The notes under the pieces are model-generated. The model ran no database searches and was not told where the DNA came from. It was given only the letters and a program-made list of their open reading frames with translations. A DNA stretch of 63,596 bases, the filler included, from Anaerolineae bacterium (GTDB lineage Bacteria > Chloroflexota > Anaerolineae > B4-G1 > DUEL01), in assembly GCA_041082215.1 (NCBI GenBank). It is 14 parts of 14 records of this genome, joined end to end, with 100 filler letters (N's around TTAATTAATTAA, not from the genome) between each part and the next. Parts side by side here need not be neighbours in the genome. Positions count along the whole stretch, not along the records: positions 37,747 to 39,794 come from JBDOIF010000136.1; 13 more parts are not named here. One strand, written 5' to 3'. This document shows, one piece after another, positions 19,910 through 39,954 of the stretch (the first letter of the stretch is position 1; every line of letters begins with the position of its first letter). Both the position numbers and the translations under genes were made by a program.

Positions 19910-19935
19910 GATCGAGTTTGACAGTTGTGGTGTTG

Positions 19936-19963
19936 ATTATACCTCCCCTGACGAAACTGTCAA
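19936..19963 (-). promoter_or_regulatory. Sigma70 promoter for the FMN riboswitch operon
   Basis: Minus strand TTGACA (19963-19958), 16 nt, TATAAT (19941-19936). Confidence 0.75.
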
Positions 19964-20106
19964 GTTTGATGAACCGGGCTTCGGGCAAAAGTTCGGACAG
20001 GGCCGGAGAGCGACCCTCACCCCACCCGGAAGGGGGCCAGGGGGTGGGGTGAGGGCAATAGGGTGAGGTCAGAAGCGGCCAATGAGCGCCTGTGCCCAAA
20101 CTGACG

Positions 20107-20170
20107 TCCGAACGGCTGGCCGCTCAGCCGCGCCGCCGAAGGCGGCGTCGGCTGCAGCGGCGGGTTAGCC
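20107..20170 (-). mobile_element. Integron attC recombination site (64 bp)
   Basis: Minus strand GGCTAAC (R'')...GCTGCAGCCG-ACGCCGCC-TTC-GGCGGCG-CGGCTGAGC...GTTCGGA (R'); imperfect palindrome with unpaired bases, overlapping the TAA of the upstream gene. Confidence 0.78.
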
Positions 20171-20553
20171 CGCACCCCCGTCTTCCAGAGGATATACCAC
20201 CAGGGGCTTCGCTTTTCCTTTGACGCTGATCTCTCGCCTAACGCCAACGCGAACCGCTCGCCCTATCTTGTTGTAGACATTCTCAGATATTAGCACTTCG
20301 CCTGATTGCGCCGCGCTTTCGATGCGTTTGCATGTATTCACAGTATCGCCAATCACGTCGTAGAATTTTACCCCTGCGCTTCCTAACAACCCTTCCACGA
20401 GCAGTCCGCTCTCCAGCCCAATGCCTACTCCAAGATGTGCGCTCGATAGCAACTGCTTGATTTGACTGCGAAGTTCGAGGGCTGCCCGAACGGCTGAATC
20501 TGCCGTTGAGAAAACCGCCATCACTTCATCGGCGGACAATTTGAATTTGATGG
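20165..20553 (-). CDS. Class III adenylate/guanylate cyclase domain protein (5'-truncated), probable gene cassette
   Basis: ADEVMAVF, GIGL.SG, YDVIGDTVN..KRIES, VKGK; visibly more AT-rich than its neighbours. Confidence 0.85.
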
Positions 20554-37646: not shown

Positions 37647-37916
37647 NNNNNNNNNNNNNNNNNNNNNNNNNNNNNNNNNNNNNNNNNNNNTTAATTAATT
37701 AANNNNNNNNNNNNNNNNNNNNNNNNNNNNNNNNNNNNNNNNNNNNGCGGCTGCGGACAAGCTTTGTCAAGTCCTCTGGGGTGGCAATTCCGGGCCCCAG
37801 GCAGGGGGCAATGACAGGTGCACCTGAATATGAATAGAACACCTGTTCCAAAACCATCATTCGCTTGTGAAAGACCTTTTCCGCTTCCCGCTCGCTAAAA
37901 ATTAACAAGCATATAT

Positions 37917-39131
37917 TCAGCGATTGCGATGCTGCCTGACCTGGCTGAGATGATAAGCCTCGTCATAGGGCTGACGATGCTGCCACAGATGCCAGATAAT
38001 CGCCAGCCAGCGGTTGGCCAGACAACGGTAGGCCTGGTTCTTAGACATCCCCCGCTCCAGGGCCTCGGAGAGGTAGGAGGCAGCCCACGCCGAGTGAGCG
38101 ACCGACTCCATTGCGAACTGCTGGGCAGTGTTACGGTAATCGTGATTGCAGGCCTTGCGGAAGCGGACGTGACGGCTTTTCCCGCTCTGCTCGGTGACGG
38201 GGCAGGTGCCGGCGAGAGCCTGGATGGCCGCTGGGGAGGGGAAACGGTCGCGGTGATCGCCGAACATCACCAGCAGTTTAGGTTCGAGGAGCGCTCCGGC
38301 GCCTGGGAGGGAGGCGAAGATAGGGGCGTCGGGGTGCTGAACGAAGAGGGAACGCACCTCTCCGAGTGTCTGCGCCTTGTGCTCCAGCAAATCGAGGAGG
38401 AGCTGGGCCAGGAAAGTAGCCTCATCCTGGTAGGCCAGGAGGACGGCCTGGGCCGGTTCGAGTGGTGGAGCGGCGAGGCGGGCGTAGAGGTCTGGGAGGC
38501 GGCGGGTAGCGGGGTAGTGATGCTTTTTGCAGAAGGAGACGAACTCGGGGAAGGGGAGCTTATGGGCCTGGTGTGGGGAGGGGTAGGCGATGATGAAATG
38601 TAGGGCGATGGGTGTCTGGAGGTCGGAGAAGAGCGTGCAGGCCTGGGGGTAGTAGCGCTGGAGGACGGCATAGAGGCGATTGGCATAGCGGGTGATGGAC
38701 TGGGAGAGGGAGTCAATGAGGCTGAGTTTAGCCCGCATCTGGATGACGAGAGGGCCGTCGGGCTTCCAGGGGGTGAGGCGGTGGCGGTCGGTGCGCAGGA
38801 GGTCGGCGAGGAGGAAGGCGGATCGGTCGTCGGTGACGGCCCCGCTGGAGGTGAGGCGGCCACGGGCAGCGTGGACAACGGAGGGTGGCACGAAGTAGAC
38901 CTGGTACTGGTGTGCCCAGAGGAAGTCAACGAGGAGATTGTGGATGGTTTCGATGGCTACCAGGCATTGGTTTGGGGGGAGGTTGAAGGGGGCGAGCTGT
39001 TTTTCAAAGGTGGCCAGGCCGGCTGGGGAGTGGGGGAAGCGGAAGCGCAGAAGTGAGGCCCCTCTTTCGTTAAGGACACGCACATCGTGATGGTTCTGAC
39101 TCCAATCAATTCCTATGAGCAGTTCTTCCAT
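37917..39131 (-). CDS. IS110-family recombinase/transposase
   Basis: IGIDW, VAIE, TDDRSA (RuvC-like DEDD domain); SLPGAG, AG.CPVTEQSGK, A.RCLANR. Confidence 0.93.
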   Translation of the reverse strand: MEELLIGIDWSQNHHDVRVLNERGASLLRFRFPHSPAGLATFEKQLAPFNLPPNQCLVAIETIHNLLVDFLWAHQYQVYFVPPSVVHAARGRLTSSGAVTDDRSAFLLADLLRTDRHRLTPWKPDGPLVIQMRAKLSLIDSLSQSITRYANRLYAVLQRYYPQACTLFSDLQTPIALHFIIAYPSPHQAHKLPFPEFVSFCKKHHYPATRRLPDLYARLAAPPLEPAQAVLLAYQDEATFLAQLLLDLLEHKAQTLGEVRSLFVQHPDAPIFASLPGAGALLEPKLLVMFGDHRDRFPSPAAIQALAGTCPVTEQSGKSRHVRFRKACNHDYRNTAQQFAMESVAHSAWAASYLSEALERGMSKNQAYRCLANRWLAIIWHLWQHRQPYDEAYHLSQVRQHRNR

Positions 39132-39139
39132 GGCAACCT

Positions 39140-39371
39140 CCAGAAAGGGATGCTCTCACAGGCAGGACGCGGGTTACCGATAGCCTATCAGGGTGCTCGA
39201 GGCACGGCAAGCTTTCGTCGGTGCTCCCGGTCGCGCCTGGGGGACGGTCCGCAGCAGGCGCTCGAGGCGCAGGCTGAGCGAGGTCCTCTGATCCAGGCGT
39301 TTGCCTGTGAGGCTGAACGGGAAACGGAAAGGTCTTCTGGTATATTGTATCACCTCAGCATATAGTGTCTA
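39140..39371 (-). ncRNA. Putative bridge RNA of the IS110 element
   Basis: 10-bp closing stem (39155-39164 with 39302-39311) enclosing two hairpins, each a 4-bp stem, 12x12-nt internal loop, 4-bp stem and CUCGA loop; loop sequences match target and donor junctions; transcript ends are estimated. Confidence 0.78.
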
Positions 39372-39390
39372 CTGCGTATTATAACTGATA

Positions 39391-39413
39391 GGCTGAAACG
39401 CAGGCCGTTAGCC
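39391..39413 (+). mobile_element. 3' arm of an attC site interrupted by IS110
   Basis: Reconstituted GCGGCTGA-aacgcaggcc-GTTAGCC has the same spacing as GCGGCTGA-gcggccagcc-GTTCGGA in the attC at 20107-20170. Confidence 0.6.
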
Positions 39414-39419
39414 GCCTGC

Positions 39420-39462
39420 AAATAAAAGCCGTTCAGGTGAGCCGCCTGACGGTTTTTATTTT
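39420..39462. terminator. Bidirectional terminator-like hairpin
   Basis: AAATAAAAGCCGTTCAGG-tgagccg-CCTGACGGTTTTTATTTT. Confidence 0.55.
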
Positions 39463-39954
39463 ATCACGAAAAGAAATAGAATAGACAAGTAAGCGGCGGC
39501 TTGTGCCGCCGTGAGCGGGCAAGGATAACGGGGGGGCGGCGGCAGACCTGCCCGCCCGCACCCGACCACCGCGGCGGGCAGGTTGTCAAGCCGCCGGGCG
39601 GCTTGACAATCCGCTCGCCCCCCCGCACCCCCCAGCCTTCCAGCCAGCGCGGTTTTCCGCCGCAGTGTAGCGGCGGGCAAGGCTCACCCCCCCGCCGCCC
39701 CCCGCCCCCGCACCCCCACCCCCAGGCATCCCCCCCCGCATATGTACCCATCTATGAGCGGGGGCGGGGGTTGCTCTTGGGGGGGTTCGCCCTGNNNNNN
39801 NNNNNNNNNNNNNNNNNNNNNNNNNNNNNNNNNNNNNNTTAATTAATTAANNNNNNNNNNNNNNNNNNNNNNNNNNNNNNNNNNNNNNNNNNNNAGCGCG
39901 CGGCGGCGGTTCTTTATAAGATATATCTTGCTTCTTACATCAACCGTCGCGGCA

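Follow-up and report, generated by a model that had tools for sequence, protein, structure and literature searches.

An IS110-type insertion sequence with an upstream bridge RNA probably aimed at the L' box of integron attC sites

The window analysed here is a 63,596-nucleotide stretch of DNA from an Anaerolineae bacterium (assembly GCA_041082215.1), made up of 14 contigs of one binned genome (G000; 3.53 Mb, 174 contigs, 96% complete) with N/TTAATTAATTAA/N spacers between them. One of these contigs, C106 (2048 nt; positions 37747-39794 of the window), carries on its minus strand a 1636-bp IS110-type insertion sequence (37757-39392) whose ends are conserved among its relatives. Here we describe the anatomy of this element and present evidence that it moves by means of a bridge RNA with target guides directed at the L' box of integron attC sites, a reading to which we assign a probability of about 0.85. 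The attC consensus consists of RYYYAAC (R'') and GTTRRRY (R') around an imperfect hairpin (~57-141 nt). By L' box we mean the part of the stem beside the R' core; it belongs to the 3' arm of the attC top strand.

The recombinase gene (37917-39131, minus strand) is an intact open reading frame (ORF) of 404 amino acids (aa). Its product matches PF01548 (99.9 bits, E = 1.5e-28) and PF02371 (50.8 bits, E = 2.3e-13) and has the domain pair of the IS110 family, an N-terminal DEDD/RuvC-like domain and a C-terminal Transposase_20 domain; it also scores 149.4 bits against NF033542 ('IS110 family RNA-guided transposase'), for which the cut-off is 140. D9, E61 and D101 are invariant in the 14 aligned rows, and a G308-x2-P311-x4-S316-G317 motif can be read from the translation. 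From work on IS621, the D-E-D-D and G-x2-P-x4-SG residues are presumably the catalytic ones. A sequence search of the PDB with the recombinase gave 0 matches at E <= 0.001. By tblastn, plasmids gave matches of 35% identity or less only; all bear the names IS110 family or ISEsa2, and none could serve as an IS1111 reference.

The non-coding regions on the two sides of the gene differ in length: the left-end region, which forms the leader upstream of the gene, has 261 nt against 160 nt at the right end (37757-37916, minus strand). In end alignments the termini are conserved across the relatives, with a left end that begins CCTATCAGTTATA and a right end that closes TTGACAAAGCTTGTCC; all aligned elements start CC-TAT(C/T)AG... 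and finish ...TTGACAAAGC(T/A/G)TGT-CC. Because every one of them opens and closes on CC, we take CC to be the core dinucleotide. On the plus strand GG, which is CC on the element strand, stands at both junctions (37755-37756 and 39391-39392), which leaves the boundary of the element uncertain by 2 nt. The terminal 60 nt of the two ends share no inverted repeat, terminal or subterminal, of 5 nt or longer. The right-end region holds TTGACA at 37765-37770, and promoter-like elements are predicted at the left end (39344-39383, minus strand), namely TATAAT at 39378-39383 and TGATACAAT at 39344-39352, the latter a candidate extended -10 for the bridge RNA. A GGTAnACT block in the left end is kept among relatives. 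If the ends were joined in a circle, 17 nt would separate TTGACA of the right end from TATAAT of the left end, and the two may form a consensus junction promoter.

The leader RNA upstream of the recombinase gene is of the bridge type, with one loop for the target and one for the donor. Eleven non-redundant left ends were aligned and folded with RNAalifold, which gave a consensus with an outer stem around two stem-loops, each with a large internal loop. In the window, the bridge RNA core occupies 39155-39311, the target-binding stem-loop 39234-39299 and the donor-binding stem-loop 39176-39222, all on the minus strand. Compensatory changes are seen at 18 of the 34 pairs of the consensus fold across the 11 elements. 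The proportion of paired cells is 95.2%, compared with 83.6% in shuffles (0/500 reach the observed value) and with 30-45% when the partners are slid by 1-3 columns.

Both loops can be read directly, and they act like the guides of a bridge RNA in the sense established for IS621 (PMC11208160). In loop 2, the left donor guide (39208-39215, minus strand; AAAGCUUG) matches the right-end terminus and the right donor guide (39184-39191, minus strand; CUGAUAGG) is the complement of the left-end terminus CCTATCAG. These guides covary with the ends that they match: the left donor guide with the right end in the relatives L007 (GCGTG), L008 and L009 (GCATG) and L030 (GCAAG), and the right donor guide with the left end in L021, L022, L008, L007 and L030. 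The corresponding loop 2 variants are AAAGCTTG, AAAGCGTG, AAAGCATG and AAAGCAAG with the right end and CTGATAGG, TAACAGG and TAAAAGG with the left. In loop 1, the left flank followed by CC is repeated on the 5' side, and the complement of CC and the right flank forms the 3' side. The left target guide (39272-39280, minus strand) is CGCUCAGCC, core CC included; the right target guide (39249-39255, minus strand) is GCUGCGG, the complement of CCGCAGC (core plus right flank), and it matches the element's own right flank at 7/7 positions, with 5-8 in the relatives. Among the relatives, the left guide makes 7-10 contiguous matches to its own flank, wobble allowed, in 8 of the 10 scored; the left guide of L008 has a script score of 1 and makes 9-10 matches by eye after a register shift of 1 nt. 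Contiguous guide-flank matches summed over both guides average 13.7 at own sites compared with 6.75 in 110 cross pairings.

Removal of 37757-39392 from the sequence joins GCGGCTGCGG (37747-37756) to CTGAAACGCAGGCCGTTAGCC (39393-39413). The first piece (plus strand) is the upstream remnant of the interrupted attC on its L' box side; it includes the core GG at 37755-37756 and the CCGCAGC matched by the right guide, and it is just 10 nt long in the assembly owing to the contig end at 37747. The second (plus strand), read from the sequence, is the remainder of the attC 3' arm (CTGAAACGCAGGCC) followed by the R' core GTTAGCC (39407-39413). The element is placed 14 nt upstream of this R', in the 3' arm of the hairpin. 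GTTAGCC is one position off GTTRRRY, and R'' is visible only as its final AAC. We take the plus strand to be the top strand of attC at this site because of the bulged-base rule, the cassette junction and the arrangement of ORFs; the recombinase gene is antisense to the cassettes and the element lies within the 3' arm (L' box).

A second site of this kind is intact in the window. It lies at 20107-20170 on contig C99, with the minus strand as its top strand, and shows R'' GGCTAAC and R' GTTCGGA; one arm carries two extra bases. Read on the minus strand, 20108-20132 is GCGGCTGA-GCGGCCAGCC-GTTCGGA; GGCTGA and GTT are 10 nt apart, as at the site of the element, and a 124-aa ORF on the same strand (20165-20539, minus) ends inside R''. 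The two target guides together encode CGCTCAG-CC-GCAGC, and the element's own site reads GTTTCAG-CC-GCAGC. The C99 site agrees with this 14-nt guide-encoded target at 12/14 positions, and at 9/9 with the left guide. The minus strand of 39272-39280, CGCTCAGCC, recurs at 20121-20129, while the own left flank shares only the six contiguous bases TCAGCC. An initial annotation made from the sequence alone had stated that removal of the element restores an attC 3' arm with the spacing of the C99 site, that the left guide fits that site at 9/9 and its own only at TCAGCC, and that a guide RNA lies upstream of the gene. All of these sequence statements are borne out, and the upstream RNA is the bridge RNA described above. 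Searches with the C99 attC against the source genome (blastn-short and nhmmer) match only the site itself. About 150 nt downstream of it, a consensus-like promoter (TTGACA-17 nt-TATAAT; 19935-19965, minus strand) precedes an ABC-transporter operon on the same strand.

Counted on both strands, the 3.53-Mb genome contains the guide 9-mer 78 times, so a 9/9 match is by itself at chance level. Such a common word is what a chance landing in attC would draw on, as would carriage of the element as cassette cargo, in either case with no guide-directed preference. The signal that rises above chance is the register of the 9-mer within an attC-like hairpin, together with the comparative evidence (7/13 sites) and the metagenome evidence given below. 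Both guides flank the exact junction, and independent copies and relatives recur at the same attC position, all of which makes an undirected landing a next to negligible explanation.

The source genome also encodes an integron integrase, on contig C31 (TIGR02249, 405.7 bits against a cut-off of 265; 0/14 control genomes pass). Across the class, 84 of 301 genomes have integrases above this cut-off, several of them with in-frame stops. The integrase is present in 6/10 genomes that hold a relative of the recombinase, compared with 78/291 others, a weak enrichment among genomes that are not independent.

The attC nature of the interrupted site is seen in metagenomes. Logan contigs from four hot-spring metagenome runs, belonging to two studies, were mapped to C106. 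The contig of run X1 that covers 37750-37891 extends leftward into the complementary 5' arm of an attC. Manual pairing of its 30-nt loose end with 37750-37756 and 39393-39413 gives three helices (8, 6 and 6 bp) around a 3-nt loop; one C and one A are bulged, both on the 5' arm only, and AAC faces the GTT of GTTAGCC. The bulges read on the complementary strand as a G and a T that flank CGGCTG, which we take to be the standard arrangement of extrahelical bases in attC bottom strands.

Contigs of these runs also show other sequences at this position. Three different upstream sequences share the constant downstream DNA: one in X1 before 39406, one in X4 and X6 before 39407, and a variant in X1 before 39400. 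Two of the three join at the G of GTTAGCC (39406-39407), and joins at G|TT are as integron cassette exchange would give, here observed at the level of populations in hot-spring metagenomes. The X1 variant before 39400 is an uninterrupted site that reads CGCTCAG-CC-GCAGC on the complementary strand, a perfect fit to the left (9/9) and right (7/7) guides. The X4 and X6 contigs cross the left end of the element and diverge at 39396-39397 into other flanks, which the left guide matches at 9/9 and 8/9 and which carry the R-box-like heptamers GCCCAAT and TGCTAAG 14 nt away. The flank variant GTTTCAG is found in another attC of the community. In our reading, the window copy has entered a non-cognate site of the attC family. 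Run X6 also has a contig with an internal-deletion derivative, in which 37828 is joined to 39281, with GT between and 1452 nt skipped; both ends are retained, and the recombinase gene is lost together with the 3' portion of the bridge RNA.

Relatives with 46-78% protein identity to the recombinase were collected for comparison. Recombinase matches are found in 10/301 genomes of the same class at E <= 1e-30 and in 7/401 genomes of the phylum at E <= 1e-60, G000 included in both counts. The phylum-wide search yielded one extra relative at 49% identity and six at 35-38%, and further relatives came from two genome-contig loci (Chloroflexota and Anaerolineae metagenome-assembled genomes) and 12 metagenome loci. 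RYYYAAC with at most one mismatch stands 11-14 nt before the core in 7 of 13 independent left flanks (the window copy, L018, L019, L021, L022, L008 and L010); the chance expectation is 0.026 per site and the binomial tail 1.3e-8. Empty sites could be rebuilt for L018 and L008, the two with flanks long enough on both sides, and both fold as hairpins: GGCTAAC...GTTGGGC in L018 and GCCCAAC...GTTGGGC in L008, with a bulged T before CGGCTT or CGGCTG. Single-base bulges confined to one arm are shared by the window copy's own site, L018, L008 and the C99 site. At the L008 site (L045), a 318-aa ORF begins 38 nt after R'; no clear second attC was found near it by a scan for R boxes and hairpin energy, a scan that is too permissive in GC-rich DNA. 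Three records, L025, L017 and L024, hold the same element at the same site, with the recombinase split over two frames by a frameshift. The element in L024 is the longer (1808 versus 1642 nt); its right flank equals the attC-type right flank of L021 for 13 nt, but no R box stands at the usual distance in its left flank.

These sites bear on several expectations of the initial annotation. It had taken the attC 3' arm to be the target, which the metagenome 5' arm and the sites of the relatives support; it had asked for a complementary 5' arm left of 37747, which lies on the metagenome contig left of 37750; and it had looked to other copies for attC-type sites, which were found at two left-end junctions (9/9 and 8/9) and in 7/13 relatives. 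Its view that the guide is set to the attC consensus holds in part: the guide is aimed at attC, and it matches one natural empty variant perfectly (9/9, 7/7), so it is not simply a consensus. Its remark that attC-targeting elements are known in the IS1111 group agrees with the available text of PMC11187229 and PMC3001079.

Several observations weigh against a bridge RNA programmed for attC, and they are best considered together with the alternatives that they favour. Hand-made scans of the genome for attC motifs show no excess over shuffles (15 versus 18-32; 157 versus 161-178). Poor assembly of arrays would account for such a scarcity of recognisable attC sites in the assembly; further candidates for attC 3' arms are seen at the start of C118 and at ~39.4 kb of C18, and C118 has GGCTTA-N-GTTCGGACGTGAGTTGGGAC, like the sequence after R' on C99. 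The intact attC-like site at 20107-20170 is on a contig separate from that of the element, although within the same binned genome. In the relatives, 6/13 sites have no R box and several resemble other palindromes by eye, among them those of L023, L009 and L030. On the recombinase tree attC targeting is unclustered, with 4 changes (327/500 shuffles are as low), and the tree itself, poorly resolved (3/10 inner branches starred), does not allow gains and losses of this targeting to be put in order. Together, the unenriched scans and the other palindromes would suit a clade that homes to hairpins in general, with a generic REP-like or terminator-like palindrome as the target and only a superficial likeness to attC. 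We consider this very improbable, given the RYYYAAC/GTTRRRY boxes at fixed spacing in 7/13 sites, the bulges on one arm only with the G/T-CGGCT(G/T) arrangement, the alternative upstream sequences that join at 39406-39407 on the G|TT of GTTAGCC, the ORFs that end in R'' and start after R', and the integron integrase in the genome. The clade re-aims readily between targets.

The guides themselves are not free of exceptions. Those of L007 match neither flank (2 and 2 contiguous), the sole failure among the 11 elements. Two perfect 14-nt guide-target matches in G000, on C80 and C101, lie outside any attC-like context and are unoccupied. The own left flank of the window copy is matched at 6/9 left-guide positions, the three mismatches being those furthest from the core, and the available text of PMC11208160 describes low mismatch tolerance for IS621. 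The metagenome observations come from one contig per run, with 30 letters of each loose end visible. In the recombinase, the fourth DEDD position is Ser104 (TDDRSA; codons 101-104 at 38820-38831) where Asp is expected; across the 14 rows this residue is Ser in the window copy, L018, L006 and L007, Ala in L008 and Asp in nine. With Asp in 9/14 aligned relatives, a 6/9 match at its own site and an internal-deletion form in X6 (37828 to 39281), the window copy could be a dead or non-autonomous relic in a mismatched site. This we judge unlikely, since its 404-aa ORF is intact, the Ser is kept in the 78%-identity relative, Ser or Ala is found in two other lineages with intact ORFs, and near-identical copies occupy at least three different sites in related metagenomes.

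The link to the host is a separate matter. By blastn, C106 matches only itself in the source genome, and because the element is a single copy on a 2-kb contig it is tied to this genome and to its integrase through binning only. The record titles of two relatives and the binning of this contig suggest a Chloroflexota host. Elsewhere on C106, a near-perfect inverted repeat (39568-39618; TTGTCAAGCCGCC / GGCGGCTTGACAA) lies in ORF-poor, GC-rich DNA downstream of R', and its only Rfam match is a chance-level miRNA. Beyond the repeat, at 39679-39747, many metagenome contigs break and a bin of very high depth is seen. The Rfam scan of C106 gave nothing above the gathering score and three weak chance matches only.

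From this anatomy a mechanism can be proposed for the attC-directed element. It would excise as a circle whose junction creates the TTGACA-17 nt-TATAAT promoter, and the leader RNA would then fold into its two internal loops. The donor loop would pair with the joined ends AAAGCTTGT-CC-TATCAG and the target loop with CGCTCAG-CC-GCAGC, and the DEDD/Ser recombinase would exchange strands at the CC core, presumably with tolerance of the three mismatches at a site such as that of the window copy. Once inserted, the element would lie 14 nt upstream of G|TTAGCC and run against the direction of cassette transcription. It would split the attC hairpin and so probably disable the recombination site of that cassette.

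Because each guide is legible in the sequence, the logic of targeting is explicit and can be tested: the target is 14 nt long, with the L' box at its centre. Because integrases are common in the class (84/301), such elements could shape cassette mobility beyond clinical integrons. Cassette exchange at a G|TT junction in a hot-spring community, seldom seen directly, is visible in the metagenome contigs. As a prospect rather than a result, a natural attC-aimed bridge RNA could seed tools that deliver DNA into integrons.

Among known systems, the closest parallel in target is the IS1111-attC group. In the available text of PMC11187229, elements of the IS1111 family carry their non-coding region downstream, have subterminal repeats and encode transposases of 330-350 aa, whereas those of the IS110 family have an upstream non-coding region, with 395-455 aa in the subgroup that contains IS110 itself; the rule on the position of the non-coding region has a few exceptions there. 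The element described here fits the IS110 group on three counts: its RNA is upstream, it has no subterminal repeats of 7-17 bp and its recombinase has 404 aa. It resembles the IS1111-attC elements ISPa21, ISKpn4, ISPst6 and ISPa25 as these are presented in the available text of PMC11187229 and PMC3001079, in that they too have a DEDD recombinase, are RNA-guided, and insert in attC in a site- and orientation-specific way, antisense to the cassettes. Their RNA, however, is downstream, with subterminal inverted repeats and a protein of 330-350 aa, and they insert near the 5' end of attC (Leon et al., discussion of PMC3001079, as far as its text is available); the present element has its RNA upstream, no such repeats, 404 aa and an insertion in the 3' arm (L' box). 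None of the traits of the group (downstream RNA, subterminal repeats, 5'-end insertion) is found in it.

The few exceptions to the position rule leave some room for a member of the known IS1111-attC group with a relocated RNA region and an inherited taste for attC. We hold this to be quite improbable, in view of the protein length, the lack of subterminal repeats, the long non-coding region with its RNA upstream, and the insertion in the 3' arm where IS1111-attC elements enter near the 5' end (available text of PMC3001079). The element is distinct in layout and insertion point from that group. In the available text of the literature searched (PMC11187229, PMC3001079, PMC11089894, PMC9229058), attC targeting is ascribed to the IS1111 group only, and no report of an IS110-type, non-IS1111 element that targets attC was found there. 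Layout and insertion position make it appear that attC targeting had an independent origin here. With somewhat better than even confidence, we propose that attC parasitism arose a second time among RNA-guided DEDD recombinases, in an IS110-type clade of thermophilic Chloroflexota-like hosts whose guides are set on the conserved L' box beside the extrahelical bases. One guide pair would hit a family of attC sites, with tolerance of left-guide mismatches at the far end, and in relatives changes in the guides would suffice for a switch between attC and other palindromes.

In mechanism, the nearest counterparts are IS621 and other bridge recombinases of the IS110 group. As described in the available text of PMC11208160, they share with the present element a long left end, an RNA with target and donor internal loops, and a junction promoter; in IS621, too, the partner of the left guides is the bottom strand and that of the right guides the top strand, and the core dinucleotide takes part in all four pairings. 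The element differs from IS621 in a core of CC rather than CT, in a target of ~14 nt (7+2+5), and in aiming at attC rather than REP. Its protein is too distant for a PDB sequence match, and the fourth DEDD residue is Ser in the window copy.

A third comparison is with the group IIC-attC introns, likewise a mobile lineage that homes to attC in antisense orientation (available text of PMC3001079). These differ in being retroelements with an unrelated mechanism, for which the bottom-strand hairpin is the recognition feature and the other end of attC the insertion point. An attC is recognised by its folded shape, yet three unrelated or distantly related lineages (group IIC introns, IS1111-attC elements and the IS110-type clade) appear to home there, which suggests attC as a recurrent safe haven. 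If our reading is right, the element described here is a natural 'integron-homing' bridge recombinase that enters attC on the arm opposite to that used by IS1111-attC elements and group IIC-attC introns.

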